Below, one piece after another: positions 1 to 64,000 of a stretch of DNA of 64,000 nucleotides. The stretch is from the IMG/VR virus record IMGVR_UViG_3300010413_000013, positions 1 through 64,000 of that record; one strand, 5' to 3'. The notes beneath the pieces were generated by a model. It made no database searches. It was given only the letters and a program-made list of their open reading frames with translations, and was not told the DNA's origin. This DNA is from a virus. Made by a program: the position numbers and the translations under genes. Every line of letters starts with the position of its first letter. Position 1 is the stretch's first letter.

Positions 1-541
1 GATCTGAAAGTTTTACATAAATAGAAGTATTTCCAGATGCCCCATAGCCATTACTATAACAATTTAATATCTCGAAGTAATTAGCCCCATCTTCTACTCT
101 AACATTATGATATACACCATTAAGCAAATAAAAACCATCAACAGTAATATAATCTTTTCCATCTATATGAATAAGTCCTTCCCAAAGACCTTCTGTAATA
201 TAAGCACTGTCCAACCTTGGCATATATGAATCACCGGAGTATGCTTGAAAAGTGATTCTATTAACATCAGATGTACCACTATTCGCTGGTTTTAATTCAG
301 TAGAATAGTGATAAGAAGGACTATGTTCCTGCTCCATTCTAAAATTCACAACATCACCAGCAGAAGCATTTGCATTTGCTGCGGATACAGAACAACAAGA
401 AGTACCGGAAAGAGGAGAAGCACTTTGACAATTACTCCAACTTGCAGTACCAGTAGGAGAAATCCAATAGGTCCCTGCAAATGCAGTACCAGTAAGCAGT
501 AGGAGAGAAGAGATTAAGCCTAATATTAATTTTTTTACCAT
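1..541 (-). CDS. Secreted right-handed parallel beta-helix (pectate lyase family 9-like) protein, truncated at window edge
   Basis: Not in the ORF track; translated by hand from the ATG at 541: MVKKLILGLISSLLLLTGTAFA/GTYWISPTG...ANANASAGDVVNF...KPANSGTSDVNRITFQAY...IHIDGKDYITVDGFYL. The frame stays open to position 1. It has a Sec signal peptide (AFA site) and the YxSPxG...AGDxV...SG...ITxxAY start typical of Pel9-like beta-helices. Confidence 0.7.
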   Translation of the reverse strand, partial: MVKKLILGLISSLLLLTGTAFAGTYWISPTGTASWSNCQSASPLSGTSCCSVSAANANASAGDVVNFRMEQEHSPSYHYSTELKPANSGTSDVNRITFQAYSGDSYMPRLDSAYITEGLWEGLIHIDGKDYITVDGFYLLNGVYHNVRVEDGANYFEILNCYSNGYGASGNTSIYVKLSD

Positions 542-1230
542 GATGGAGGAGCCTCCGTCCCCTCATAAATTTTAAAGGAGTCATAATAAAGTACATCACT
601 TCCGGGGGAATACCATGTTCCAATATTCAAATTACTTGCATTTGTAGGAACAATAGTTGCAGATGTTGTACTATAATCCCAAGCATCAAAGGTAGAAGTA
701 GTAATACAAATTTGCACTGTCTCCGAGCCACCAGTAGTATAAATAAGATGCACGAAAACGTGATACCAAGTATCATCAACTATTTCTACTCCAGAACTCC
801 AAGTAGTAGTTCCATCTATAAGTTCATATATATCTGTGGGATCATTTATTTTACCGTCTATATAATTAGTACCACCACTATCTTTAATTCTGAAAACATC
901 AGTATCCCCAGTGAGAGTATCAGTGTAAATCCAATAATCAAACCATACTTCGGTGTAATCGGAGATATCCTTTACCATAAACCTAGCAGTAGCACTACAC
1001 TCCATAGAAACAGAACCAACTGCAACAATAGATCCTTCACTTACAGGAGATCCATAAAAAGAATCCCAATTACCAGCATTCGATGTTGGACTCCAAGGAG
1101 ATTCAAAACCATCTCCATCACTGAAAATAACAGAAGAATCTACTACTTCCCCCCTCCTTATCATAATAGTAGAAAAAGCCGTAGATACAGTAAGGAAAAG
1201 TATAAATAATGCGAAGAGTAATCTTTTCAT
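535..1230 (-). CDS. Secreted beta-sandwich (LamG/concanavalin A-like) protein
   Basis: Probable start MKRLLFALFILFLTVSTAFS at 1230 (TAATG overlap with the upstream stop). Motifs DGFES, VWFDYWIY, DDTWYHVFVHL and LYYDSFKI are lectin/glucanase-like. Confidence 0.6.
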   Translation of the reverse strand: MKRLLFALFILFLTVSTAFSTIMIRRGEVVDSSVIFSDGDGFESPWSPTSNAGNWDSFYGSPVSEGSIVAVGSVSMECSATARFMVKDISDYTEVWFDYWIYTDTLTGDTDVFRIKDSGGTNYIDGKINDPTDIYELIDGTTTWSSGVEIVDDTWYHVFVHLIYTTGGSETVQICITTSTFDAWDYSTTSATIVPTNASNLNIGTWYSPGSDVLYYDSFKIYEGTEAPPSW

Positions 1231-2462
1231 TATTGTACCTCTAATGTCCAGCAAATGCTTACCCATGTAGGAGTACCGGAACACGTTCCTATATTTAAAT
1301 CCAATTCCTCTCCAGCAGCTAAAGTATCATCCCCACCCATAGATGTATCAAGTACTTCACTTGAAGTAGCAGTAATTTCCGAACCATTAACCGGAGACCC
1401 ATTTATAGAAAAATCAAAAGGAACAGTTTGATCTGTTTCTGCCCAAATTGCAGTAATAGTTTGTGTAACACTCCCCATATTTCTCCAGACAGAAAGAAAA
1501 TCTTCATCTGATACTGGATCTTCTATATAGATGCATTGGGAGAGGTTCGCAGCAGCAGCAGTATCAACATCTCCACCAGTAATGGTTAAAACACCAGCAG
1601 CACTGATCGTCCCATCTCCACTCATTGCCTTGGATTCATACCTATCATCAGTAGTATTATCATAAATAAGAATCATTCCATCTGTAGCAGGGGTATCATT
1701 ATCTTCTATAGCTACAGAATCCATAACCTTTTGTGCAGGAAGTGCCGCAAGCCATTTTGCTCCATTATAGATAAATAAAATTATATCACCAACAGTAGCA
1801 GTATAGTCTATTCCATACTGACCATAAATATCACTACCATCAAAATTTATAGTAACGGCATGATCGCATTCTAATTCAAACCAATCACCATTGGAAAATT
1901 CTGATTGGTCATCCCCAACACCATCATCAAAATCTGTAATAGTTACTACTCCTCCTGTTGCCCAATAATGGTGTATTTCACTCCCACCATCAGAAACATC
2001 TGGAGTAGCATCAGCAGCACTAAATGTACTTTGTGATATATCAGAAGTAAATCTTTCTGTCTCTGTTCCACCTCCACCAGCTTCAACCTCAGACCAAGAA
2101 GGATTTGCTCCTGCTCCATTTGTTTCCAAGTAGTATCCATTAGTACCGGGAGCAAGTTCTGCCCAATCTGTACCATCAAAATATAAAACTGTACCTTGTG
2201 CTACAGAAGACATATCTGCAATATCTTGTAAGTATGGATCTTGCGCTTGTACATTTGTTCCTATTGCTAAACCTAAATTACTTCTTGCATTGGAAGCAGT
2301 AGTAGCATTTGTTCCTCCCAAATCCACATCTATAGCACCATTACTATCATCATCTAATTCTACTGCTGTAGTTCCAGCAGCAGTGTCCATTAGACTATGA
2401 GTAGCACAACCACTGAATACCATAAGAAGTAGAACTAGAAGTATAGATAAATATTTATACAT
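1230..2462 (-). CDS. Lipoprotein with tail-fibre-like motifs
   Basis: MYKYLSILLVLLLMVFSG-C lipobox. GGTNATTASNARSNLGL and GTVLYFDGTDWAELAPGTNGYYLETNGAGANPSW are motifs common in phage fibre proteins. Confidence 0.65.
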   Translation of the reverse strand: MYKYLSILLVLLLMVFSGCATHSLMDTAAGTTAVELDDDSNGAIDVDLGGTNATTASNARSNLGLAIGTNVQAQDPYLQDIADMSSVAQGTVLYFDGTDWAELAPGTNGYYLETNGAGANPSWSEVEAGGGGTETERFTSDISQSTFSAADATPDVSDGGSEIHHYWATGGVVTITDFDDGVGDDQSEFSNGDWFELECDHAVTINFDGSDIYGQYGIDYTATVGDIILFIYNGAKWLAALPAQKVMDSVAIEDNDTPATDGMILIYDNTTDDRYESKAMSGDGTISAAGVLTITGGDVDTAAAANLSQCIYIEDPVSDEDFLSVWRNMGSVTQTITAIWAETDQTVPFDFSINGSPVNGSEITATSSEVLDTSMGGDDTLAAGEELDLNIGTCSGTPTWVSICWTLEVQ

Positions 2463-2479
2463 AAATTATAAAGTCTCCT

Positions 2480-2950
2480 CTACATCATAGTAAAATAGAC
2501 AAAATCACCATCTTTCGCTTTTTTAGAATAGGAGGGAATAATTATCTTATCCGATTGTGGATCTATCAAAATTATTCCCTCCTTCGTTCTACATATATTT
2601 AAAGCATGTGAACCATTATTAAATAGTAGATGTTTAAAGTTCAATCCCATAGCAAAGCCCAATGCCCAAGTATATTTGTACTTATCAGGAACAGTAATAG
2701 ACATATTGTAATAAAGTTCTGCTTCTATTACTAATGCCTTTTTAATATTTGCCCACAGAAACAATGCATAGTTTTCACATTCATTAGTAGTATTTCTATA
2801 ATGCATATCAGCTACAGAATGCTGCTGTACCATATGTGCTACTTCTACTGTTAAAGGAATATAATACTCCTTCTGCCCAAACCACGTTGACTTCAATCTA
2901 GGCCATTTCTTCTTCAAATCTTTACTAAGGTTCGTATAGCTTAAAATCAC
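2480..2950 (-). CDS. Papain/transglutaminase-like cysteine enzyme (agglutinin C-terminal-like domain)
   Basis: ECENYA (Cys) ... HALN (His) ... LIDPQ (Asp) in the triad order of papain-like folds; no signal peptide. Confidence 0.5.
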   Translation of the reverse strand: MILSYTNLSKDLKKKWPRLKSTWFGQKEYYIPLTVEVAHMVQQHSVADMHYRNTTNECENYALFLWANIKKALVIEAELYYNMSITVPDKYKYTWALGFAMGLNFKHLLFNNGSHALNICRTKEGIILIDPQSDKIIIPSYSKKAKDGDFVYFTMM

Positions 2951-3016
2951 GATATAACCTCTGTAAATAATCGTCTAAATATTTTCTATACCATCCCTTT
3001 TCTTTCCCTGCTGGAT

Positions 3017-3436
3017 TTATTGGCTCAGTGTGAAATTCATAGGTGCAGTCGGAGGGTTTTCATTAAAGCATACTGCTACCTCCGTACTATAACCACTTTC
3101 TAGCCCACAATCATCAAAAGCAGTGAGGACAAAATAAGTTTTTTCGTTTTCTACTCCATTATAGGCAGTAAATACATATAGTGGATTTACTGGATCTGCT
3201 AACTTATCTAATGTAATATCCATATCAGAAGCATTATTGCCCACCTGTACATACGGACCCCCTGCCGTAGTAGAAGAGTAAAGCCGATAACCCATAAGAT
3301 TTGCTTCTGTATTAGCATCCCAAGCAAATGTCAACTCTCCTGCATCTGCTCTCTGAATACCAGCACCTACTGTTAGGGAAAGACTAAACACTACTGCCAG
3401 TACTAAAATTAATGCTATACCTATTTTTTTAATCAT
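3017..3436 (-). CDS. Secreted fibronectin type III domain protein
   Basis: Start MIKKIGIALILVLAVVFSLSL...ADA follows an AAGGAG RBS. LTFAWDANTEANLMGYRLY...TYFVLTAFD..GLESGYSTE is an FN3 pattern. Confidence 0.75.
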   Translation of the reverse strand: MIKKIGIALILVLAVVFSLSLTVGAGIQRADAGELTFAWDANTEANLMGYRLYSSTTAGGPYVQVGNNASDMDITLDKLADPVNPLYVFTAYNGVENEKTYFVLTAFDDCGLESGYSTEVAVCFNENPPTAPMNFTLSQ

Positions 3437-4970
3437 TGTCTTTTTCTCCTTTGTTATTATTACTATTATCATTGTTATTACCACCATCACTGATTTTCTT
3501 CTTCATTAGTTCCCTTTGTAATTCTTTATCTTCCTCTATCTCTTCGTTTTCCTCCTCTACCTTCTCATAATATTCCTTACTCATTTCCTCTGCTTCTTTC
3601 TTAGTATATCCAAAAAATCTCATTAAAAACTCTACCAATGGCATTACTAGTTCTATGCCCGGTGTCATAGCATACTGTGCTATTGCCTTAGTAGCTAATT
3701 CAGCATTCTTTACTATAGATTCTTCTCCGGGGGTTTCAAACTCGGGCCATTCTAATATATATTCTTCTTCTTTAGGTGAAGGAAGTATTTCTAATTCAAT
3801 GAGTCTATCGAAGAAGGGTCTTATAATTATTGGTTCTATGTGGTCTTCCCTTCTACTTTCCATTCGTTCATTCCAGTTATTTTTATCTTGACTACTTGCC
3901 AATTCCCCCCTTTCACTACCCATCAAAATTCTCTTTGGTATATTCTTAGCTGCTGCTATCAAGTCTATTTGTGCTTCTAGGAACTTAGTAGGATCTAGTG
4001 CCTGTACTTTCAAATCCTTTACCTCTAATCCTTGTAGCTTTATAAATCTTCTTAGTTCATGTTCATATTCATCTAGTTCATCTGCTAATGCTGCTTTAGC
4101 AGCATCATCAAAAGTATAGTCTTCTTGTGCTGATAGAACATATCCCGGTCTAGCTCCTTTCCAAAACATTTCAGCAGATCCAGCAGAAATAGTTTCTAGA
4201 TCTTGAAGTCTATTATAGACTACTTCTAAAGAAGGAATACCGTAAACATCTGATTCTAATGCTTCTGGTACTATATGAATTACTCTTGAATAATGAACAG
4301 GGATTCCTCTTTGGGAAGAAACACCATCCCCCATAGAGGTAGTAAGCTTGTAGATAACAGGAAGGGAATATCTTTCATTCTTGGGATCTGTTTCCCATTT
4401 TGTTATTTCGGTAGATCCTTCAGAGAAGACAGATAAGTAGACTAACTTTAAGTTGCTGTTTTTCTTAACAGGCTTTGATAAATCTCCTCCATCATTGAAT
4501 CCAAGTAGAACTATTGAGAATCTACCTAAACAGGATAATGTATCTGCTCGTTTAAGATAAGAGTAGACTTTTTGCTCTTTTACTATTGTTTCTACTTCAT
4601 CTTCAAATACAGATTCTTCATCTTCTTCTGAATCCTGTATTTTAGGCTTTTTACGCCAACTAGAATTTATTGGCCTGTCTACTATAGCTTTTGATAGATC
4701 ATGCCTATCATATCTAGCTTTGTAGTCTTTGAAATCTAAGTAGAGGGGATAACCGCAAATAGTATATAAATTACGATCACCAGAGAAAGATTTACCTAGG
4801 TAGGAGAAGAGTTTAGACCTAGAAGTAATAGCAGAACTTAGTCTATTTACTAAGTCCTTTATAACACCTTTGTTTTTATTGATTGCTTCTAAGTGCTGTT
4901 TTTCTGGTACTGCTCTATCACCATTCGATAGCATATATAGTTTATCGGGTTTTTGACTACTACTTGGCAT
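3429..4970 (-). CDS. Portal protein (DUF1073-like)
   Basis: 513 aa. AIVDRP, VHYSRVIH, YGIPSLE and IPKRILMGSERGELASSQD match the DUF1073 portal pattern; it lies downstream of terL. Confidence 0.85.
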   Translation of the reverse strand: MPSSSQKPDKLYMLSNGDRAVPEKQHLEAINKNKGVIKDLVNRLSSAITSRSKLFSYLGKSFSGDRNLYTICGYPLYLDFKDYKARYDRHDLSKAIVDRPINSSWRKKPKIQDSEEDEESVFEDEVETIVKEQKVYSYLKRADTLSCLGRFSIVLLGFNDGGDLSKPVKKNSNLKLVYLSVFSEGSTEITKWETDPKNERYSLPVIYKLTTSMGDGVSSQRGIPVHYSRVIHIVPEALESDVYGIPSLEVVYNRLQDLETISAGSAEMFWKGARPGYVLSAQEDYTFDDAAKAALADELDEYEHELRRFIKLQGLEVKDLKVQALDPTKFLEAQIDLIAAAKNIPKRILMGSERGELASSQDKNNWNERMESRREDHIEPIIIRPFFDRLIELEILPSPKEEEYILEWPEFETPGEESIVKNAELATKAIAQYAMTPGIELVMPLVEFLMRFFGYTKKEAEEMSKEYYEKVEEENEEIEEDKELQRELMKKKISDGGNNNDNSNNNKGEKDND

Positions 4971-4987
4971 TCATATCCCGCCTCCCA

Positions 4988-5048
4988 TTTATAAATTGGT
5001 TGAAAACAAATTCAACCAATTTATAAACTAATTTGGGAAAAATGTCAA
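4988..5048 (-). promoter_or_regulatory. Sigma70-type promoter for the portal operon, overlapped by a 17-bp perfect inverted repeat (operator candidate)
   Basis: Minus strand TTGACA (5043-5048), 17-nt spacer, TATAAA (5020-5025). Inverted repeat TTTATAAATTGGTTGAA-aacaaa-TTCAACCAATTTATAAA at 4988-5027. Confidence 0.7.
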
Positions 5049-5086
5049 GTACTTTTTCTTTTAATTATAAAACCTTGTTATTATTA

Positions 5087-5311
5087 TTAAAGCTGTTCAT
5101 GTAACTTCATGAACCAATCAAATGCTTTATCTTCCGGAACCTTGCAAGCACCACATGAAGTACCATCTATATCTATTACTATAGGATGATGGTAGTAGTA
5201 GTCAGTAAACTTGTCCCTTAACTGTAGTCTATATACATGCTTCTTAGCTGCTTCTTCTGTTTCAAATTCACTATTACCTACCTTGTAGACATTTTTTATT
5301 TCATATGCCAT
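5087..5311 (-). CDS. Hypothetical protein
   Basis: 74 aa, AGGAG RBS, co-oriented with neighbours. Confidence 0.6.
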   Translation of the reverse strand: MAYEIKNVYKVGNSEFETEEAAKKHVYRLQLRDKFTDYYYHHPIVIDIDGTSCGACKVPEDKAFDWFMKLHEQL

Positions 5312-5312
5312 T

Positions 5313-6014
5313 TTATACTCCTTTTCTATCTGTTACACACACTCCCACTCTACTAGTATCTAACACATCTACTAAAAAATCTTCTTCTTGCGCTCTATAC
5401 ACCTGTATCTGTTTTTCCAAACAACTCCAAGTAAACACACCACTTCCCAAGTAGAGAAGCATTTTAGTAGATCCTATTGATCTTTCATTAGTACTTCTAC
5501 AAAACCCCTTACACTCTAGGTTTCTATGCTTTAAAAAGCGTGTATTGTGAAAGGTAGTACCCCTATCTACTTTTACTTTCAATAATGCTGGATCTAATAA
5601 ATCTTCCTCTGTTACCAACTCTGCGGAGCATGTAATAGCAGCATCTAATTCAGTAGTAGCATTTAACAAATAGAAGATCGTTTCATCTATAGAATGTCTA
5701 CCAAACACATCGTTATCTATTACTGCTATTACATCCGATGGTCTTAGTCTTCTATGTACCATTACCTTTGCTGCTCTGTTAAAAGGAGACAACCATAAAT
5801 CTTCTATTGCAATAGCTTCTAAGTTTTCTGGATGCATTGTTAATTGTAATGAGCAGCAAATATCTACTACTTCTTTTGTTATTGCTGCTGTTAGTGGTTT
5901 AGGATAGGCTACTGTAATATCCTGCACTAGAGAAGATTGCTGCATCTCCTGTATAGTATCCTTTAAACCCAATAACTCATTTGATACTGATACTACTGCT
6001 AAAATCTTTTTCAT
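5313..6014 (-). CDS. Divergent KdsB/CMP-sugar cytidylyltransferase-like protein
   Basis: DVIAVIDND...IDETI...AITCSAELVTEEDLLDPALLKVKVD...GFCRS...LYLGSGVFTWSCL mirrors the KdsB C-terminal consensus. The N-terminal ARxxSxRxxxK motif is not recognisable. Confidence 0.45.
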   Translation of the reverse strand: MKKILAVVSVSNELLGLKDTIQEMQQSSLVQDITVAYPKPLTAAITKEVVDICCSLQLTMHPENLEAIAIEDLWLSPFNRAAKVMVHRRLRPSDVIAVIDNDVFGRHSIDETIFYLLNATTELDAAITCSAELVTEEDLLDPALLKVKVDRGTTFHNTRFLKHRNLECKGFCRSTNERSIGSTKMLLYLGSGVFTWSCLEKQIQVYRAQEEDFLVDVLDTSRVGVCVTDRKGV

Positions 6015-6016
6015 GA

Positions 6017-6664
6017 TTATACTCCTTTTTTTGATAGAAGCTTTTGCAAAATACCACCACGTTTTAATGTTTGTGCAACATTATGATTATTACAATCATA
6101 GTAATATACATTTACTTCTTCTATATCTACTAAGTGAGAAGCATGAATTACATCTATTTCATTTTTATCACAAGCATAGATATTATAAGTTGTCGTTCCA
6201 TTGGAGCGCACTAGTAGATTTTTCAAATCGTAGAACCAACTACTTCTTCGCTCTTTGGAATACAATTTTTCCTGCTCTACTTTAAACCTATTATCTCCTA
6301 CTCGTTCCATATTAGGTTTATCAACAAATGTCTGTGGAGAGAAAGCATGTACTACATCTACTCCAACAGTGTACCCAAACATAATAGCAGCATATCCACC
6401 GGCAGATACACCTACTGCACAAGTTGTTTTTGGTGCTAGTTCTTTTATTCTACTCCAAAGCACTACACTTCTATCATACACATCACCATGATACCAAATT
6501 CTTTCATCATCCCTAAGTAATATTCTACTATAATCTGTTGCAGCAGTAGACTTAAAGAAGTTAAATGGTTTACCTTTAGGACCAAACATACCAGTAAAAG
6601 CCATTATTAAATGAGAAGGATCTGCTCCCTTCTGTACAATCATTTCTTTCATCAATCCTCCCAA
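6017..6664 (-). CDS. Alpha/beta hydrolase (esterase)
   Basis: GVSAGGYAA nucleophile elbow, AFSPQT, candidate Asp (DVIHA) and His (NHNVA). Confidence 0.75.
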   Translation of the reverse strand: MGGLMKEMIVQKGADPSHLIMAFTGMFGPKGKPFNFFKSTAATDYSRILLRDDERIWYHGDVYDRSVVLWSRIKELAPKTTCAVGVSAGGYAAIMFGYTVGVDVVHAFSPQTFVDKPNMERVGDNRFKVEQEKLYSKERRSSWFYDLKNLLVRSNGTTTYNIYACDKNEIDVIHASHLVDIEEVNVYYYDCNNHNVAQTLKRGGILQKLLSKKGV

Positions 6665-6903
6665 TCTTCTAAACTTACTCCTCTATCATTACATAGAGAA
6701 CGAATTGATTGCCGAACTTCCCATAATGCTTCTTCTACTTCCTTTGGTAGTTCTGGATAAGAGTGTTTCATCTTGTTTCTTATTTCCATATCTAATTCAT
6801 ATAGAACACCAAGATATTTCTCTCCATTAGCTGTTATCTTCCACTCTCTCCAAACACCCAATGTCCATATATGTACAGCTTTTACTATTGCTTTTAATTT
6901 CAT
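6652..6903 (-). CDS. Hypothetical protein
   Basis: 83 aa, strong AAGGAGG RBS. Confidence 0.65.
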   Translation of the reverse strand: MKLKAIVKAVHIWTLGVWREWKITANGEKYLGVLYELDMEIRNKMKHSYPELPKEVEEALWEVRQSIRSLCNDRGVSLEDWED

Positions 6904-6917
6904 AGTATTCCTCCTTT

Positions 6918-6978
6918 AAAAAGAAAAAGAGGAGGATAATAGAACGGTATATCATTCCAAGGCTACTATCCTCCTCTT
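6918..6978 (-). terminator. Intrinsic terminator-like hairpin
   Basis: AAGAGGAGGATA/TATCCTCCTCTT stem followed by a T-rich run on the minus strand. Confidence 0.55.
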
Positions 6979-7055
6979 CCGAGACAGGTGGCAGTAAATA
7001 ACCCACTCATGACCCCCGACACGAATGGACATAACCTATCTCTACTCCGGTGCTA

Positions 7056-8862
7056 CTATTGAGTAGTAAACCACTCTAGGAGAGTTTTCTTTACTTCTGC
7101 TTTATTCCTACACTCTACTTCTTTTTCACAAAAGAAACACATTCTGAAAGTAGGTACATTACAACAAGGATACTGGTGTGCTATCTCTGCATACCTAGCT
7201 TCATTCGTTTGCCACATTTCTACTGCTTCATCTTTTCGATAAAACATCCTTAATCCTTTCTTTTACTACTTCATCCAAAATGTTATCACCAAACACCAAC
7301 ATAGGATCTAGTAATTCTCTTCTTTGCCTTACAAGATATCTAGGTAATTCATATATAACCCAAGGATGTAGACCACAAAATTGATGTACCTGTTGAAACA
7401 TCTTCTGTCTTATAGATCTCTCATAGGATCTATCATATACTTCTTTCTCTACCGTTTTGTTTCCCATTAGCTATAATCCTCCAACATACTATCTTTACAC
7501 TTATCACAAATTAATAATACTATTGATTGAGTACTACCTACTATGTATGCTGAATCTGCTGGATCTGCTGCTACAGTAATTCTATTGATGTTTTTAGGTA
7601 AATGCTTCTTCTTACATATATCACATTTCTTCTTTTCCATCTCTACCCCTAGTTCAAAAACTGTGAAGTTAATTCTACTCCACAAACACCATGAAACACT
7701 ACTGTAGATTGCCCTAGGTTAAACTGCATTACTACATCTTCCCCATAAACATTCATAGCAGTAAGCTGCTGTCCTTTTATTATTTCCCTAATAGCAAAAA
7801 AACCTTCTAGATCGGGATCTTCTTTAGTCTTCTTCGTTTGTTTTCCCATTTTTCTTTAAGACTCCTCCTACTATATTATTCAGTTCTTCTGCCGTTTGCA
7901 TTTGTTGTTTAAGAACAACTAACTTTGCTTTCATAATAGTAGCAAACTCAGATCTCTTTCCACATTCTTCTAACACCGCAGGAAATGTCCTTGCTGCTTT
8001 CAACATGAATTTATCCTGCTCTTCTCTGTCTTCTATCCGTGTTGCTTTTCTAGCTATTTCCAAATGATGATCTAGAATAGGAGACAACGCCCAAGCATTC
8101 ATTGCATCTAATAAAGTAGCAATATCTTTTGCTGTTAGTTGTAGAAAGTCTTCCATGTCTACTCTCCTTTAATTAGGGGTTTTTTATTTCTTCTTTCTAA
8201 TTTTATTATAACACATTTTTATCCGATCTAGCATAGATTTTTTTGGCATTAGCTTTTTTGTGTCTAATATCGGGCGTATATTGATTAACATTTTTTTAAT
8301 CTCTCCCCACCAAGGACCACCTAGCCACTGTTGGTCCCTCTGGTCTACTTCCTTGCAAGCTACTGCTAGTAGTCTACTACAACATCCAGATATTATAAAA
8401 CCATGTCTATTAACAATCTTTTCTGCTTCTATTCTAGTAGTTGCTACTACTATTACTGTTTTATGCTTACTACCATGCAGATCTATTTGCCTTGCTGTTA
8501 TCCTAAATAATTTTCTCTTCTTTGGCTTTTCCATTATCTCTGTCCTTATTCATTTCTATTACTTTATCTCTAAAAGCTTTTTCTATCTTCCTTTTACTAT
8601 CTTTTAATTTCTTCTCCTTCAATGGTCCCTTTCCCTCTACATCCTCTTCCACTAATTCATACCACTTCCCCGGTTCCTGTAAAGCTTCTAATGGAGACAT
8701 TTCTACTACTTTATGTATTATAAATTTTCTATCAGATTTAGTATAGAGTCTCACCAAATCAGCAGCCTCTTTTTCTTCCTCTGCTATTATCTTACAGCTT
8801 TTGACAAAAGGAAAACCGTCATCTACAAACTTCACTGTTACCTTAAATATTTTTTTCTTCAT
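7056..8862 (-). CDS. Run of about 7 small hypothetical genes (7056-7247, 7228-7467, 7467-7640, 7649-7849, 7824-8156, 8184-8534, 8503-8862)
   Basis: Tightly packed, overlapping, co-oriented ORFs. Two carry CxxC pairs (possible Zn ribbons). Confidence 0.55.
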
Positions 8863-8864
8863 AA

Positions 8865-9926
8865 TTACTTCCTTAGTAAAAAGTCTACTGTATTAAACTC
8901 TCCATGAACAGGATGTACCAACCAACCACATTGAATAGGTTTAGCTCTTCTTCCCTTCTGGTGATCGTATGCATCTGTACCACAAGCTGCCCCACCTATC
9001 CAGTAGTAGGGATGCTTCAATGGAGAATGCCAATGCCCCATTACTACTTTGTGAAATCTATTATAATCTGGCTCATTCAATCTTATTAATGCTTGTGAAG
9101 CAGTTAATCGTTCAATACCATAATAGGGGAATCCTGCCCATCCCATTACTCCATGTCCATGTGTAATCAAATATCTTCTTGTAGATACTTCTACACTCTT
9201 AGTATGTGAATAGTAAATATTAAAAAGCACATTATCAAGATCGGATACCATTGTCTTTGCTATATGCCCTACTGTATAATTATGAGTATTCAATCCTGCT
9301 TCTCTAGCTGGTGGTTTCTTTGTAAGTCTACCATGATTATCAGGAGTAATATAATTTACTATAATATTCTTAAAATAAGGAGACAGAGCAGCAATAGTTC
9401 TAGCTTTCAATATACCACATCTCAAAGCTTGCACTGGTGCAGGAAAGGCATTAGTTACTGATAGTTCTTTATGAATATCTCCACTGATATTATCTCCAGT
9501 ATCCAATATGTACAAATCCTGTATGGTATATCCAGTTCTTTGTACTTCTATCCATTTGATAAAGTCTACTAATAAATTATCTATGTACACCTCTAGTATC
9601 TCTGGAGAGTATTCATCAAAGCCTTCTATTTCATCTGCCGGTTGTACCTTACCTAAATGCCAATCTGTCAAATGGAGTACTGCTACACATTTACTTCTAC
9701 CTCTTTTGGCTCGTTCAGTAAATATTCTTCTAATAGGTGGGAACTTGTAATCATTCAATTGCAGTGATAATTCTCTAAAGTAGCCTTTTAAATCTCCATA
9801 ATCCTTCTCCAGTGTTTTAATCTCATTCTTTAATCCATCCACTCTTCGACGTAATGCAAGAATTTCTACTTCTTCCCTTGAACATTCTTTTACTTCATCT
9901 AGTGTTTTTATAATTCCATCCATCAT
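8865..9926 (-). CDS. Calcineurin-like metallophosphoesterase with N-terminal coiled coil
   Basis: LTDWH, TGDNISG, DNHGR, THGH and GHWH motifs. Confidence 0.85.
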   Translation of the reverse strand: MMDGIIKTLDEVKECSREEVEILALRRRVDGLKNEIKTLEKDYGDLKGYFRELSLQLNDYKFPPIRRIFTERAKRGRSKCVAVLHLTDWHLGKVQPADEIEGFDEYSPEILEVYIDNLLVDFIKWIEVQRTGYTIQDLYILDTGDNISGDIHKELSVTNAFPAPVQALRCGILKARTIAALSPYFKNIIVNYITPDNHGRLTKKPPAREAGLNTHNYTVGHIAKTMVSDLDNVLFNIYYSHTKSVEVSTRRYLITHGHGVMGWAGFPYYGIERLTASQALIRLNEPDYNRFHKVVMGHWHSPLKHPYYWIGGAACGTDAYDHQKGRRAKPIQCGWLVHPVHGEFNTVDFLLRK

Positions 9927-10381
9927 AACACCTCATATCTTGAAAGTGATATATGCTTCTTCAGAGTTTTAATACCTTCTAAGCTACTCCAAAGAATAAC
10001 TCTTCTTCCTTTTTGTTCCACCGATATTCTTCTCTCCCTAAATACAGGTAGCATCTTTACCTTATCCCATTTGTTATTACTGATACCTAGGTTTCTTTTT
10101 AATACAACTTCTTCTATGTAATTATCTCCTACCTCTTTCCTCAAATAATCTTCTACCTGAGTTACATAGTCTACTCTCTTCAACATTTCTTCAGCAGGGA
10201 TAACACCATTAGTAGCAGTAGGTAAAGCATCTTTATCCGGTGGATAGATTTTATGGTAGTTCATTTTGTTATAGACTGTTGGCCTAGATACGTTTAATTC
10301 CTGTACACAAGCATCTACTAGTTCTGCTTTAGTAGAATACTTCTCTATATTTGCCATTAACCATTCTTTTATAGTAGTCAT
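9923..10381 (-). CDS. Hypothetical protein with N-terminal HTH-like motif
   Basis: CVQELNVSRPTVYNKM; overlaps the phosphoesterase start. Confidence 0.55.
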   Translation of the reverse strand: MTTIKEWLMANIEKYSTKAELVDACVQELNVSRPTVYNKMNYHKIYPPDKDALPTATNGVIPAEEMLKRVDYVTQVEDYLRKEVGDNYIEEVVLKRNLGISNNKWDKVKMLPVFRERRISVEQKGRRVILWSSLEGIKTLKKHISLSRYEVL

Positions 10382-10418
10382 AGGTTTTTCTCCTTTCTAA
10401 CTACATTATACCATATAT

Positions 10419-11768
10419 TTAACGAATTGCCCCGGCAATCTTTTTTGTTCCTGCAATTTCTGGAAACAAATCAGTTATCGCCCACACCATAGCATCTGCC
10501 CTATTTGGTGATCCTTCCCCCATAAAACCCCGATCCGTAAAGGAACATTGTTCTTCTTCCAGTTCTGGAAAGTAACCAATATGATGTATCAGACCATTCT
10601 CGTATAATGCTGAAACTGGTTCTGCTCGTACCGCTTTACCCCTAGAGGCTGTTACTCCTACATACTTGACATTCTTCTTCTGTGTCTTCACTACATACTC
10701 TACCATAGCACCACCATAATTCTTCTCTCCTACTATTCTATCAGCAAAATGTCTATCGTATGCATTAGTAGCTACTCTTCCCCAAGTTGCAGGACCAGCT
10801 TTAATAGTAACATCTTCTATTATGTATCCATGATTATTGTCTCCTAGACCAGCTACTACAATTCCTATTTCATCATTATGTGCATTCTCTTCATCATCTG
10901 CACCACTTGGATCTATTGCTACTACTACTTTCTTGAATGCTGGTACATGCCCTCCCGGTTTAATTCTATACTTATCTATTATATCATCTGTCCACAATGC
11001 ATTATCTAGTTCTTCAGTAAATTTACCTTCTAGGAAACGTAGACGTTTAGGACCACTAAGAGTAGACAAAATATCTTCTATGTAATCAGGTGGGAGGTTT
11101 GCTTCATTGTCTTTGGGATTCATGTAGAGAAATTCGTAATCTCTCCCCTTCTTTGGTAGTGGGGATCTACTGATAGGATCTTCTTTCTTGACAAACATCT
11201 TATAGCACCAGTGCGCTTTTGATGGGGGATTACAATCAAAGTAAAATCTATTAATTAAAGCTTCTGCTACTGTTTGTCCATCATCATTTACTACTTCTTG
11301 TACTGCTACTTGTGCAAGCCTTGTCTTCACTATTTCAAATCCAGAAAAAGGTATTTGTGATATCTCGTTCAAGTAGATAGTACAATACTCTAAACCCAAT
11401 ATCTTCTCTGTACGTTCTTTATTATCAAGTCCTCCAAACCATATTTCACTACCATTAGGAAAACGTACTACCCAATCCTGTTTGCTTACTCTCCAATCTC
11501 TACCTTCTTTTAATTCGGGGAAGCATAAGCGCATCATCTTTGGAAAGGTATCAAAAGCTATTGCTTTCTTAACATCGTTGAAAACAGATCGCAGGATACA
11601 ATGTCTACTATTGGGTGCTTTTAGTGCTCGTAGTGCTACACACCTACATAAAAGAAAAGTCTTCCCTGACCTACTCCCTCCTACAAACATTATATATTTA
11701 CTTCTGGAGGAAAGTAGCTGAAGACCTACTAGCTGTTTGGGTGTCCAGATAAAATTAGCTTCTGTCAT
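10419..11768 (-). CDS. terL: Terminase large subunit
   Basis: Walker A GGSRSGKT, Walker B-like YLNE, CNPP motif, and RNase H-like nuclease (AIDPS, VGEKNYGG, SPNRADA). Confidence 0.95.
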   Translation of the reverse strand: MTEANFIWTPKQLVGLQLLSSRSKYIMFVGGSRSGKTFLLCRCVALRALKAPNSRHCILRSVFNDVKKAIAFDTFPKMMRLCFPELKEGRDWRVSKQDWVVRFPNGSEIWFGGLDNKERTEKILGLEYCTIYLNEISQIPFSGFEIVKTRLAQVAVQEVVNDDGQTVAEALINRFYFDCNPPSKAHWCYKMFVKKEDPISRSPLPKKGRDYEFLYMNPKDNEANLPPDYIEDILSTLSGPKRLRFLEGKFTEELDNALWTDDIIDKYRIKPGGHVPAFKKVVVAIDPSGADDEENAHNDEIGIVVAGLGDNNHGYIIEDVTIKAGPATWGRVATNAYDRHFADRIVGEKNYGGAMVEYVVKTQKKNVKYVGVTASRGKAVRAEPVSALYENGLIHHIGYFPELEEEQCSFTDRGFMGEGSPNRADAMVWAITDLFPEIAGTKKIAGAIR

Positions 11769-12083: not shown

Positions 12084-12884
12084 TTATCCATAATTTCCTC
12101 CTAATAATTTATCACCTCTTTTTAATACAGTCCACTGATAGTAGTCCTGTTTAGTTTCACATAATCTATATCCCATCTTACCAAGTAAGTAGTGTTTTAA
12201 CTCTTTATTGATTGCTGCTACTCTTTCCCAAGAAAAAAGCTTTTTGTATTCTACTCCTACTTGCTGATATCTTTTTCTATCACAATTGGTAAACGGTGCT
12301 GATTGTTTTACTTCTTCCGGTATTATGATATCTCCCCACCTAGATTTTTCTACTTCTAAATCATGTTGAATCTGTTGCAGAAACATCTTGGTATAAGCAG
12401 GATTTCTTATTAGTTCTTCATAAGGCACTTGGTAATCACATAGAGGCAACCACCAGTAGTAGAATCTTTGGTAGAGATTGGCAAGCTTTGCTGGATCTAT
12501 TCTTTTATCAATCCTCACTTCTGGATAGACTTTACAGATATTTACTTTCTTTCTATAAATAGAATCAATCCAAGAGTAGGGATGTTTATAGATCAGGAGT
12601 ATGTATATTTTCTTCTCTACTATTGCTCGTAATACTTCTCTACCGTAAATGTGTTTGTGAAAGCCTGTCTTTGGTGTGTTTACAATTACTACTTCTTCAG
12701 TATTCTGCAATAGTAGCTGTTCTAAGAAGGTAGTGCCGCTTCTCTGTAAACCTACTACTACTACATTTTTCTTTTTCATTCCAAGTAGTCTTTCTCTTCT
12801 AGTTTTAACTTCATAGGTATCATAGAATCTAAGGCACATAATGTTCACACTCCCTGCAAAGATCACTGCCCGGTGTATTATCAC
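12084..12884 (-). CDS. PAPS-dependent sulfotransferase-like protein (true start possibly 12779)
   Basis: 5'-PSB loop VVVVGLQRSGTTFL, 3'-PB-like YKHPYSWIDS, and VPYEELIRNP. Confidence 0.8.
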   Translation of the reverse strand: MIIHRAVIFAGSVNIMCLRFYDTYEVKTRRERLLGMKKKNVVVVGLQRSGTTFLEQLLLQNTEEVVIVNTPKTGFHKHIYGREVLRAIVEKKIYILLIYKHPYSWIDSIYRKKVNICKVYPEVRIDKRIDPAKLANLYQRFYYWWLPLCDYQVPYEELIRNPAYTKMFLQQIQHDLEVEKSRWGDIIIPEEVKQSAPFTNCDRKRYQQVGVEYKKLFSWERVAAINKELKHYLLGKMGYRLCETKQDYYQWTVLKRGDKLLGGNYG

Positions 12885-43069: not shown

Positions 43070-43405
43070 TTATCCATCGTTCACCTCCATCAGTATTTCT
43101 ATAATAGCATTTTTAATCTTGATCCAAGTCATAAGATCATTACCAAAATCATAATCTTCTCCTAACATTACTTCCCAACCATCCAACAAAGCATCTGCAC
43201 TAGTGAATAGTTCCTTTGCTTTTATGTGTGTTTCCATTGGTATCTGATCTTGTACTATTAAATACTGCTCAATGAGTAGATTAAGTTCTGTTCTAGCTGC
43301 TAGATATTTCTTATCAGAAGTATTTAAAGCTGTTGTAGCACAACCTATCCCAAATAGTAGGAGGGCTGCTATAATAGCACTCTTATAAATCCAATTTCTT
43401 TTCAT
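43070..43405 (-). CDS. Lipoprotein, possible spanin component
   Basis: AIIAALLLFGIG-C lipobox; in the lysis cassette. Confidence 0.6.
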   Translation of the reverse strand: MKRNWIYKSAIIAALLLFGIGCATTALNTSDKKYLAARTELNLLIEQYLIVQDQIPMETHIKAKELFTSADALLDGWEVMLGEDYDFGNDLMTWIKIKNAIIEILMEVNDG

Positions 43406-43415
43406 AGTTTCCCTC

Positions 43416-43622
43416 CTACATAGTAATTTTCTTACTAGCTGTTACTCTTCCAATAATGGTTAAAACTACTCCAACAGCACCACCGATAGCAGTAGCAATA
43501 TCTGCTAGGGTAATCTGGTCGTCTGCATTTAGAGTATATCCAAAACCAGAAAGAATAAGAGCTACCAACATAAAAATAGATCCCCAAATAGTTTTACTTG
43601 CATACCATTTTTTTGTATCCAT
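43416..43622 (-). CDS. Holin-like 2-TM protein
   Basis: KKWYASKTIWG start, two hydrophobic helices, GR.TA terminus. Confidence 0.65.
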   Translation of the reverse strand: MDTKKWYASKTIWGSIFMLVALILSGFGYTLNADDQITLADIATAIGGAVGVVLTIIGRVTASKKITM

Positions 43623-43625
43623 GAT

Positions 43626-43964
43626 TTAATCTCCTTTTTCTTTTTTGTCTTTGATAAGTACTTTAAGCATTCCTTCTATGTTTGCTGTTTTTTCTCTCAT
43701 ATCAGCTACATCGTCTTTAATATCTTTTATATCGCCTTTCATTTCTTCTACACAATTATCTACATCTTGTTTTCTTTGGTGTATTGTTTCTTCGTTTTTT
43801 TGTACATCCTTCTTTAGTAGTTTTACTTGTTCATCAGCATCTACTGCTTTATTAAATACAAAAGCTGCCATAAATCCTAAAACAGTAAGCAAAGATCCCA
43901 AAGCTAGCTTTCTTATGAGAGGACCATAACCATTTACTACTTGTTTTATTCTGTTTTTTACCAC
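43626..43964 (-). CDS. TM + coiled-coil lysis-associated protein
   Basis: One TM segment then a coiled coil; next to the endolysin. Confidence 0.55.
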   Translation of the reverse strand: MVKNRIKQVVNGYGPLIRKLALGSLLTVLGFMAAFVFNKAVDADEQVKLLKKDVQKNEETIHQRKQDVDNCVEEMKGDIKDIKDDVADMREKTANIEGMLKVLIKDKKEKGD

Positions 43965-43984
43965 TTTACATTTTAGCCTCCTTT

Positions 43985-44425
43985 CTACTCTCTTAATTCA
44001 AAATGTGGTAGGTCATCAAAAGTTTGGTCATTTACTCTTCTATTCATGTTCCAATCAGCACCGTGTCTAATTTTTATTCCCATCTGTGCAGCTACTCCTA
44101 AGACAAAACCACTGAAGTAATACCATTCTGCTAAATCTTTACTATATGTCTTCGTTCTATAATCAGGCCAAACTACATTTGGTCTATCTAGTCCCCAACA
44201 TCTCCAAGGTACTACATCTACTGCTATAGAAGGTAGTTTGTTATGTGCGCTATTAGGCCAACGTACTTTACTTACTTCTCTTGGTAAAGCATTTTGCTCC
44301 TCCATAGTTCTATGTCCACATAAGACAGCACAATCCCAATGTTGTACTACTGTTTCAAATAGTAGTATCAGTGGTTGTCTACAAGTATAAAGTCTTTGTT
44401 TGCTTATTTTCCCAAAGTATGGCAT
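43985..44425 (-). CDS. Endolysin, peptidase M15 (L-Ala-D-Glu peptidase-like)
   Basis: CGHRT..EQ, SAHN, AVD, GADW, DLPHFEL. Confidence 0.88.
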   Translation of the reverse strand: MPYFGKISKQRLYTCRQPLILLFETVVQHWDCAVLCGHRTMEEQNALPREVSKVRWPNSAHNKLPSIAVDVVPWRCWGLDRPNVVWPDYRTKTYSKDLAEWYYFSGFVLGVAAQMGIKIRHGADWNMNRRVNDQTFDDLPHFELRE

Positions 44426-62644: not shown

Positions 62645-64000
62645 TTACATCCCCTTCCAAAATAAGTCATTTATAGGTACTTGTTTATTTCCACCTAATA
62701 CTATAAACTCTCTTTCAGACATAAACTTATTCTTCCACCAAAGCTCATGTGGTAGTACTACATCTTTGGTACTCATTTCTATCCTAGCTGTAACCCCACC
62801 AGCGTTTTTTCCAAACCCATCTGCTATTGACACTTCATCTGTATATCCAGACAAAGCATTTTCTCTAATTGGAACCAAACCATAGCCTTCTTTTTGTGCT
62901 TCTAAACACCTTGCTTTAAAGGCTGGTCCTGTTTTACTTCCGTCAGTTCCACGATATAGAGTAATTTTCTTTTGTCCTACTGCTCTATAATATTCTTGGG
63001 TAGCTGCTCTCACTCTTATATACTCGTCTATTACTCTGTCTTCCATACCACTTGCCAAATATTTCTTTACTTCTTTCTCTATAGACTCACTGGATACAAA
63101 AGCTTTTATTTCTCTGTTCTCTACTTTTGCTGCTACAAACTTTAAAGAAGCAGGATACGAACCTTGTGTAGACCCTTGCCAAATAGAAAGGAGGTTCATC
63201 ACATTGGGGCATTCTTCGCTTATCTTCTTTCTGATAACACTCTGCATTGATCCTTCTGTCTTATCTTCTAATCCTTCAATAAACTTTCTGTACTCCTTCC
63301 TGTAAAGCTTGTATACATTCTCGTATTCCCCTCTCAGTGTTCCTACTTCTTCCGCTTCATACTTTTTACCTATCGGATACCTTTTAATCTTTACTGGTTC
63401 TTTCTTCTTTTTAGCATAGTCTAATTTTGCTTTAGCTTTTTCTATAGCCTTTTTCTTTATAGCTATCTGCTTCTCCAGTGCTGCTAATGCTTGTTGTTTA
63501 GCAAGCAGTTCTTGTTTAACCTTTACTGCTTTTATGGCTTTTACTCCTAATGCTTTTTCCCTCTTAGCAGCAGCTTTAGTATTGCTGCCATGAATACTTT
63601 TCATATAAGGTAGTAAAGCACATCTGCAATTTGGTTCACCTATTAACTCTTCTGCTTCTTGCCTAGTATATATTCTACCATGCCTTTCTATATGTGTATC
63701 TCTAACCCTTTCATCTAGTGCTGTCCACCACTGTACTAATATTTCTTCATTTACTATAGGTTCAAAATTCTCGTATTCGGTTAATGCTCCTAAATTATGT
63801 GTTCTTACTATTTCAGTTCGAGTAATCAATCTTGCTCTATTGATTGCTCTCATATTCTTTCCACCTACTGTTACCATACCAGTTTTATCTTTGTCAATAG
63901 TATCCAACATATTCCTAGCAATTTGATATGGTCCCTTACCTTCTGCTAGTCCTAATGATAGTACTCTACTTATCTGCCGATCCATTACTTCTGTAATGCC
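62645..64000 (-). CDS. Mu gpF-like head morphogenesis protein with C-terminal ADP-ribosyltransferase-like domain (5' truncated)
   Basis: RARLITRTE, WWTALDERVR..H...HG, EPNCRC (MuF); C-terminal TLYRG, ALSGYT, SEREFIVLG (R-S-E). Confidence 0.85.
   Translation of the reverse strand, partial: GITEVMDRQISRVLSLGLAEGKGPYQIARNMLDTIDKDKTGMVTVGGKNMRAINRARLITRTEIVRTHNLGALTEYENFEPIVNEEILVQWWTALDERVRDTHIERHGRIYTRQEAEELIGEPNCRCALLPYMKSIHGSNTKAAAKREKALGVKAIKAVKVKQELLAKQQALAALEKQIAIKKKAIEKAKAKLDYAKKKKEPVKIKRYPIGKKYEAEEVGTLRGEYENVYKLYRKEYRKFIEGLEDKTEGSMQSVIRKKISEECPNVMNLLSIWQGSTQGSYPASLKFVAAKVENREIKAFVSSESIEKEVKKYLASGMEDRVIDEYIRVRAATQEYYRAVGQKKITLYRGTDGSKTGPAFKARCLEAQKEGYGLVPIRENALSGYTDEVSIADGFGKNAGGVTARIEMSTKDVVLPHELWWKNKFMSEREFIVLGGNKQVPINDLFWKGM

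Follow-up and report, generated by a model that had tools for sequence, protein, structure and literature searches.

Why should a tailed phage furnish fibre-like proteins with leaders that would send them across the inner membrane of the host? The fibres and depolymerases of tailed phages are taken to be virion parts that belong to the cytoplasm, and those phage proteins that are known to reach the envelope, such as spanins, holins, Llp/Cor and Lom/Bor, are of a small, specialised kind. The question is raised by five consecutive genes behind the portal gene in the window analysed here, which comprises bases 1–64000 of the 76,009-bp IMG/VR virus record IMGVR_UViG_3300010413_000013. Four of the five predicted products start with an apparent export signal, and one of these is a fibre-like lipoprotein. 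With confidence that is about evenly balanced, the block is read here as a late-expressed accessory module that is exported to the host envelope, where it would mask or remove surface receptors or glycans, rather than as a set of tail fibres assembled in the cytoplasm.

The phage is uncultivated, and its sequence was recovered from a metagenome of marine sediment; a second study, labelled soil, contains near-identical fragments, too. The record ends in a 144-bp terminal repeat, which gives a circular genome of 75,865 bp, rated 100% complete. The continuity of the last of the five genes over the circular junction is backed by a Logan contig from the probable source sample, which extends 4.4 kb beyond position 1 of the window, and the junction between the portal and the first block gene is bridged by a contig of an independent study with >99% identity. 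The parts of 1–5200 that are uncovered in X3 and X4 correspond to assembly gaps of low-depth contigs. No tRNA genes were found in the window and no integrase or resolvase in the phage, which, judging by its gene content, is a lytic (virulent) siphophage without lysogeny genes. Without an integrase or resolvase, the block proteins would have to act during lytic growth. The host is probably diderm because the lysis cassette (43070–44425), which encodes an endolysin, an Rz-like protein, a holin and a lipoprotein, includes a putative spanin pair, with the lipoprotein as the candidate o-spanin.

Export leaders in the gene block behind the portal

All genes of the block lie on the minus strand. The upstream neighbour is the portal gene (513 amino acids (aa), 3429–4970; PF06381, 4.9e-34; phrog_146, 6.4e-70), which is followed by the genes for an FN3-like, predicted exported protein (139 aa, 3017–3436), a leaderless protein with a GTG start (156 aa, 2480–2950), the fibre-like lipoprotein (410 aa, 1230–2462), a ConA/LamG-like, predicted exported protein (231 aa, 535–1230) and a predicted exported β-helix protein of 643 aa. 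The sequence-only reading had counted the latter as a member of the module; the leader is indeed there, but the window holds only the N-terminal 180 aa (2–541), and the gene crosses the circular junction, with the remainder at G000 74475–75865 (= L004 12475–13865).

The genes are tightly packed. The ATG of the FN3-like gene overlaps the portal stop codon by 8 nucleotides (nt), the lipoprotein and ConA/LamG-like genes are joined via a 1-nt TAATG overlap, the β-helix gene overlaps the ConA/LamG-like gene by 7 nt, and the remaining gaps between block genes measure 17–66 nt. Given this spacing, and because no terminator-like site was found between the block genes, co-transcription with the portal is very likely. 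The GC content of the block matches that of the rest of the structural operon.

Signal peptides and the lipobox were judged by manual sequence rules. The rule applied to Sec-type leaders calls for a positively charged n-region, a hydrophobic core of 7–15 residues and small residues at positions −3 and −1, whereas the lipoprotein rule, PROSITE PS51257, calls for K or R within the first 7 residues, 6 uncharged positions before the box, the box itself, [LIVMFWSTAG](2)-[LIVMFYSTAGCQ]-[AGS]-C, and the Cys at 15–35. Two of the three Sec-type leaders that had been noticed in the sequence are textbook cases that agree with the rule: that of the β-helix protein (residues 1–22, nt 476–541) consists of MVKK, a hydrophobic core and AFA↓G, and that of the ConA/LamG-like protein (residues 1–20, nt 1171–1230) of MKR, a core and AFS↓T. 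The third, in the FN3-like protein (residues 1–34, nt 3335–3436; MIKK, a 19-residue core, ADA↓G), is ambiguous and could be either a cleaved Sec signal peptide or a signal anchor. In the leader of the lipoprotein (nt 2406–2462), K3, the uncharged residues 9–14 and V15-F16-S17-G18-C19 satisfy all positions of PS51257, in agreement with the lipobox proposed earlier. The same leader gives a weak match to YgdI/YgdR (NF033216, E 0.0026), which is below the cut-off, and NCBIfam yields nothing beyond this match.

The assignment of the starts is helped by the Shine–Dalgarno (SD) usage of the genome, with sites at the portal, major capsid and o-spanin-like genes. Such sites precede every leader-containing start in the block: AAGGAG lies 8 nt upstream of the FN3-like ATG, GAGGAG precedes M1 of the lipoprotein, AGAGG the ConA/LamG-like ATG and GGAGG the β-helix ATG; the GTG of the 156-aa gene is preceded by AGAGG as well. 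In contrast, there is no SD site before M25 of the lipoprotein, the alternative start at which the public gene call (P0001, 386 aa) begins, thereby losing the leader. Had the real starts been located downstream of the hydrophobic segments, the leaders would be artefacts, as the sequence-only reading itself pointed out; the SD sites favour the upstream starts, and the case of M25 shows that gene callers can conceal such leaders.

Elsewhere in the genome, signal-like or membrane-like N-termini are confined to the lysis cassette and two tiny open reading frames, so that four leaders among five adjacent genes are far from what is expected by chance. The leaders are also conserved in two families of homologues, and this conservation is the strongest evidence that these N-termini would serve as export signals. 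In the family defined by the C-terminal knob of the lipoprotein, a full Sec-type leader or a lipobox is present in 36 of the 42 distinct carriers; in 4 others the leader is truncated at the 5′ end, and 2 have no leader. Cleavage sites in this family are of the AxA type. In all 14 inspected knob proteins from viral contigs with complete N-termini, the core is short and the residues at −3 and −1 of the putative cleavage site are small. P0008, the best N-terminal analogue of the lipoprotein, carries a lipobox, too (LLTS↓C). The ConA-like family has 16 relatives among 1.84 billion representatives, and 13 of the 15 that were inspected possess a signal peptide. Taken with the SD-supported starts, these observations sustain the original claim of export signals on four of the five genes behind the portal, and export of the predicted products can be considered well supported at the level of sequence.

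Many leaders of the knob family end in A-Q, with Q at +1 of the predicted cleavage site (P0007, P0012, P0014, P0016, P0020, P0024–P0026; L091, L095). Q at this position is a Bacteroidota-like pattern. A Bacteroidota host is nevertheless doubtful for the phage described here, which has strong SD sites and no Q at +1.

A fibre-like lipoprotein with a predicted trimeric knob

The lipoprotein is likened to tail fibres by both its ends. Near the N-terminus, residues 35–99 (nt 2166–2360) match phrog_24210 (6.7e-7), a tail-fibre shaft motif, and show 62% identity over 56 aa to the tail fibre of Rhizobium phage RHph_N3_19. The shaft repeat begins ~15 residues past the lipidated Cys, with no adaptor domain recognisable between leader and shaft, and this short distance seems to leave no room for a virion-adaptor domain. 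The C-terminal end, residues 303–410 (nt 1233–1556), is a knob with a β-sandwich fold, the only usable part of an AlphaFold2 model that is otherwise poor over the full length (mean predicted local distance difference test (pLDDT) 49.7). The typical tail-fibre motifs that had been claimed for the protein are thus borne out by the shaft and by the predicted trimeric state of the knob.

Structural matches of the knob include the N-terminal domain of XepA from PBSX (Z 9.7, root-mean-square deviation 2.8 over 101 residues), the fibre tip of phage 7-7-1 (Z 9.5) and YomS (Z 7.7), followed by viral jelly rolls and tumour necrosis factor-like ligands, with the reservation that scores of Z 9–10 exceed the search background of 7–8 only modestly. 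The trimer prediction scores 0.93 compared with 0.18 for the best control, with contact agreement between runs of at least 78% and partner pLDDT of at least 89; in the calibration of this score, the mark was reached by 20 of the 30 proteins solved as one-chain pairs and by 1 of the 23 solved as single chains. The knob is therefore predicted to be a Cys-bracketed jelly roll that forms a trimer. The two bracketing residues, Cys310 and Cys404, are conserved in 43 of the 44 sequences and probably form a disulfide, which would fit folding in an oxidising compartment.

The knob family, which corresponds to the last ~100 residues of the lipoprotein, is confined to sequence of uncultivated viruses. 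It is missing from cultured phages and nearly absent from 185,579 species genomes. The one exception is a phage-like contig in a metagenome-assembled genome (MAG) labelled Pseudobdellovibrionaceae, and no further member was found in 200 genomes sampled from the class of that MAG. This near-absence suggests that the family is phage-specific. No Pfam, PHROG or NCBIfam family and no published description were found for the knob. A type IX secretion C-terminal domain was considered and ruled out, as no Pfam model of that domain matched.

Recurrence of the knob-fibre module in unrelated phages

The knob fibre is not peculiar to one genome. It was found in 18 loci that otherwise share nothing with the phage described here, and in nearly all of them one to three more proteins with leaders come after it, typically a small one (~150 aa) and a large one (350–750 aa). 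In L093, L097 and L100, a follower contains Laminin_G_3, a ConA-like domain; in L086 and L087, the large follower is related to P0067 and thereby to the β-helix protein of the present block. The position of the module varies. In L086, it is flanked by the terminase gene and a portal-like gene. The complete genomes G205 and G204 have it behind the head genes and retain a separate module from the tape measure protein (TMP) to the tail tip, and in L097 the TMP and a minor tail protein come immediately before it. Since the leaders are kept in unrelated phages, the host envelope appears to be the destination of fibre-like proteins in some tailed phages.

What emerges is a recurrent multi-gene module of uncultivated phages, apparently virulent, that would combine a leader-bearing trimeric fibre with exported lectin/lyase-like and β-helix proteins.

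The companion proteins

The ConA/LamG-like protein yields a confident AlphaFold2 model (pLDDT 89) with a leader helix, a linker and a curved two-sheet jelly roll. Its Foldseek matches comprise polysaccharide lyases (PL36, PL20, PL14), lectins and carbohydrate-binding modules (CBMs), with probability 1.0 and TM-scores of 0.5–0.6, as well as many LamG/ConA-like structural proteins of phages. No Pfam LamG model matches the sequence, so the LamG-like label given to the protein earlier holds at the level of the fold, and the protein may be called lectin- or lyase-like by fold similarity only. The wide alignment of this family is too diverse to scan, and with a narrower one no loci of the family were found in IMG/VR or the JGI metagenomes.

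For the β-helix protein, the match to PF13229 is just above the gathering cut-off (26.4 vs 25.9 bits, E 6.3e-6), and the label survives by that small difference. Its relative P0067 is a secreted bacterial β-helix protein with PF13229 and PF05048, which links the gene to the exported 566-aa protein of L086/L087. A pattern scan of IMG/VR gave no relatives of the gene, and no PDB sequence matched it.

The labels of the remaining two proteins are leads only. The FN3-like protein has no Pfam match; it hits an Fn3-like PDB entry (3mpc, E 0.017) and fibronectin (E 0.1–0.2), and an Atlas fn3 cluster appears at 0.92, rank 8. For the 156-aa protein, relatives were sought in vain with a word-based search, with phmmer against PDB, with Pfam at E 10 and with tblastn among cultured phages. 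Its Atlas neighbours (feature score 0.97) are viral clusters, a minority of whose members have PF18022 (37%) or PF18021 (28%, 17%); the lead is a cysteine peptidase of the papain-like MOA/PSL C-terminal type (PF18021/PF18022). C58, H115 and D130, proposed by inspection, are the candidate catalytic residues. That such a Cys-His-Asp enzyme would process or cross-link its neighbours, as has been suggested, is pure speculation.

A cargo hot-spot around the portal

The five genes make up the 5′ half of an accessory block of ~14 kb, with 13 genes in the gap between the portal and the gene for the MuF-type head-morphogenesis protein. A comparison was made with 80 phages that share the portal at 29–43% identity, using flanks of up to 10 kb on each side of the portal. 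In most of these relatives, MuF lies within 50–800 bp of the portal, and homologues of the 13 block genes are missing from these flanks in all 80. The synteny of the block with the portal, by which the sequence-only reading was to be judged, is therefore not conserved. Instead, the portal–MuF and MuF–scaffold gaps of the relatives hold other cargo, such as radical-SAM-like, methyltransferase-like and ThyX-like genes, and the portal–MuF–scaffold site is a cargo hot-spot. Judging by predicted leaders, exported proteins recur among the cargo of this site in the lineage.

The nearest cultured phages are Brevundimonas siphophages (39% capsid identity), which have a compact head module. Clusters of signal-peptide and lipoprotein genes unrelated to those of the block were seen at the same hot-spots in four relatives (L066:7370–10870, L071:5099–8150, L074:7056–9227 and L064:11466–12035).

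Possible function of the predicted exported module

In the favoured reading, that of an accessory to the envelope, transcription and translational coupling would tie the block, at the hot-spot between the portal and the MuF gene, to the late structural operon. Four products would cross the inner membrane, three via Sec (with cleavage by signal peptidase I or as a signal anchor) and one via the lipoprotein pathway. The core would be the trimeric fibre-like lipoprotein, composed of a lipid anchor, the tail-fibre shaft repeat, a middle domain and the Cys-bracketed jelly-roll knob; its companions would be the exported lectin/lyase-like ConA-like protein and the exported β-helix protein, which is pectate-lyase/tailspike-like. 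Late in infection, these proteins would accumulate in the periplasm or the outer membrane and bind and/or cut surface glycans or the receptor, with the knob and the ConA-like protein responsible for binding and the β-helix protein, possibly also the ConA-like protein, for cleavage. As a result, the dying cell and its debris might be kept from adsorbing the progeny or competing phages, and/or the capsule or matrix might be loosened for escape. We infer the actual export, the targets and the benefit from the sequences.

Known systems resemble this scheme in part and differ from it in part. Lom and Bor, lambda-type morons with signal peptides, are encoded in late operons, where each has a promoter and a terminator to itself, and benefit the lysogen. 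The present block resembles them in that envelope-targeted proteins are encoded among structural genes; unlike these morons, its genes overlap or nearly abut without intergenic terminators, so that they are not units with a promoter and terminator of their own, and the phage seems to lack lysogeny genes. Virion tail fibres and tailspike depolymerases share with the block the shaft repeat, the predicted trimeric jelly-roll tip and the β-helix and ConA-like folds, but canonical fibres have no signal peptide and start with a virion-attachment domain, whereas here Sec-type or lipoprotein leaders come into play, right before the shaft in the case of the fibre, and the genes are located away from the tail module. 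A phage can block its own receptor by means of an outer-membrane lipoprotein that it encodes, as T5 does with Llp and T1-like and lambdoid phages with lipoproteins of the Cor type (PMC9586334; bioRxiv 10.64898/2026.03.26.714494). As in these cases, the lipoprotein of the block is phage-encoded, would act in lytic growth, would be targeted to the envelope and could plausibly stop both superinfection and the loss of progeny on debris. Llp is, however, small, early and not fibre-like, whereas the present lipoprotein has 410 aa, is predicted to be a trimeric knobbed fibre and belongs to a late operon with exported partners; it falls outside the T5 Llp-type class and has no sequence relation to it, so that the analogy is functional only.

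Tailspike-like proteins that leave the cytoplasm are known from bacteria. WceF of Pantoea stewartii is a tailspike-like glycan enzyme that is host-encoded and exported via Tat (PMC7949094), and periplasmic capsule depolymerases are bacterial exported glycan enzymes, too (PMC6003464). In both cases, right-handed β-helix, tailspike-like proteins are sent to the periplasm, in those systems against the cell's own exopolysaccharide, which resembles the fate proposed here; unlike in those systems, the genes of the block belong to a phage; they specify Sec-type leaders and form a multi-gene module together with a fibre. PBSX XepA and SPβ YomS (PMC6834076), which include the best fold match of the knob, are phage-derived and described as exported or envelope-acting. 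They form a pentameric dumbbell without a fibre shaft and are encoded in Gram-positive prophages beside holin and endolysin, and the likeness is that of a common jelly roll.

The tail module of the phage bears directly on whether the exported proteins could be parts of the virion. It encodes, in this order, a lambda-like tube protein, the TMP (1399 aa), a 133-aa protein and a 1006-aa tip protein, and is followed by the lysis genes. The earlier observation that there is no separate fibre gene in this module is correct, but the C-terminus of the 1006-aa protein matches tail-fibre PHROGs, and a dependence of the tail on the fibres of the block becomes less plausible, given that the tip protein already ends in a fibre-like region.

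Even so, the proteins of the block might be genuine fibres or tailspikes of the virion, maturing in the periplasm and docking either between the action of holin and endolysin and the rupture of the outer membrane or after release, an unlikely option but one with substance. The shaft is homologous to real tail fibres, the predicted trimeric knob resembles a phage fibre tip, the Cys pair is conserved, and the spanin-like genes imply that a periplasmic compartment would last until the final step of lysis. Several points that weigh against an envelope role belong here as well: the module always lies within late structural operons, and in L097, L100 and L102 the leader-bearing fibre occupies the usual place of a tail fibre, with TMP or minor tail genes ahead of it and holin-like genes behind, which would fit a role in the virion. 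The envelope reading is further weakened in that no published precedent for an exported fibre module in tailed phages was found in the literature searched, export itself is deduced from sequence rules and leader conservation, and three other large proteins of the same block, a ConA-like one of 1025 aa and repeat proteins of 833 and 799 aa, have no leaders. It is, on the other hand, hard to see how a lipoprotein, the N-terminus of which would be fixed in the membrane, could join a virion without a recognisable adaptor domain, and we know of no tailed phage that assembles via exported, periplasm-matured fibres. An envelope-accessory role is favoured over a virion role on account of the lipid anchor, the absence of a recognisable adaptor domain, the variable position of the module, the separate tail-tip genes in G204, G205 and this phage and the lack of lysogeny genes. 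An extracytoplasmic step of virion assembly, in which Sec-exported, disulfide-stapled fibres or spikes are loaded after the holin fires, or an infected cell dressed with receptor-binding fibres, is rather improbable.

The other explanations carry less weight. If the knob proteins acted on the envelope itself, as proposed for XepA, the module would be an accessory for lysis or egress. XepA is cytotoxic and comes from a prophage lytic cassette (PMC6834076), its N-terminal domain is the best structural match of the knob, with YomS further down, and small holin-like membrane proteins follow the fibre in several loci. This explanation appears quite improbable, as those scores barely exceed the background and a phage fibre tip scores equally, XepA is a pentamer whereas the knob is predicted to be a trimer, and the module is separated from the phage's own complete lysis cassette by ~35 kb, measured along the shorter arc of the circle. 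There is only a small chance that the genes are captured host surface genes, i.e. morons that aid a lysogen, for example as adhesins, or mere passengers. Such an origin would account for the presence of unrelated cargo at the hot-spot in the relatives, for the secreted bacterial relatives of the β-helix protein and for the exported tailspike-like enzymes that bacteria encode, such as WceF (PMC7949094); it is at odds with the lack of integrase and resolvase, the near-complete absence of the knob family from bacterial and archaeal genomes, the overlapping genes without terminators of their own, the GC content that matches the structural operon and the recurrence of the module in unrelated phages. 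Least probable of all, with a very slim chance, is that the hydrophobic N-termini are not export signals but stem from mis-called starts or are helices that plug into the virion. The public call of the lipoprotein does start at M25, past the leader, and the long core of the FN3-like protein is more like a membrane anchor; but the SD sites are found at the leader-containing starts and not at M25, the lipobox recurs in P0008, the −3/−1 rule is obeyed with short cores in each of the inspected knob proteins, and the leader pattern recurs in the unrelated ConA-like family.

Should the envelope-accessory reading be right and the module mask or strip receptors and glycans from inside the cell, it would represent a new and probably common means of receptor destruction, superinfection exclusion or aid to egress. 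Should the proteins end up on virions instead, the completion of tailed virions in the cytoplasm would no longer hold as a rule. Both families, that of the knob and the ConA-like one, also offer candidate glycan binders and enzymes.

Other genes of the accessory block and its surroundings

Directly after the β-helix gene, on the same minus strand, lies the gene for the 1025-aa protein (L004:9440–12517, G000 71440–74517), which has weak LamG and CBM5/12 matches. Its probable start is M17 rather than the listed TTG, and a 51-residue stretch matches a 988-aa protein encoded two genes after the knob fibre in L093. Then follow, still on this strand, four small proteins, the 833- and 799-aa proteins and a 94-aa protein, after which come MuF, a DUF2213 protein and the major capsid protein.

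The 833- and 799-aa proteins are encoded by adjacent genes on the minus strand (L004:5183–7684 and L004:2784–5183; G000 67183–69684 and 64784–67183) and are leaderless paralogues with 41–43% identity. Both consist of a conserved N-terminal domain of ~170 aa and many 22-residue repeats that end in Q-P-I-R, with 16 cysteines, and show only very weak, sub-threshold matches, to a PHROG of unknown function and to Pfam Mucin-like. In the MuF-type protein (618 aa; window 62645–64000, continuing to G000 64501; L004:645–2501), the C-terminus is fused to a DRAT-like ADP-ribosyltransferase domain (PF04233, 2.4e-10; PF07357, 1.2e-6).

On the other side of the portal, ~5.4 kb with ~14 mostly small genes of unknown function (4971–10418) separate it from the large terminase gene (10419–11768), whereas terminase and portal are adjacent in the nearest cultured relatives. 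Between the capsid and neck genes, the segment 55486–58788 encodes an MptE/Maf-like protein, two hexapeptide acyltransferases and a sulfotransferase, and a second sulfotransferase gene is located near the terminase (12084–12884). The presence of these glycan-modifying genes in the structural operon hints at modification of virion proteins or of host glycans.

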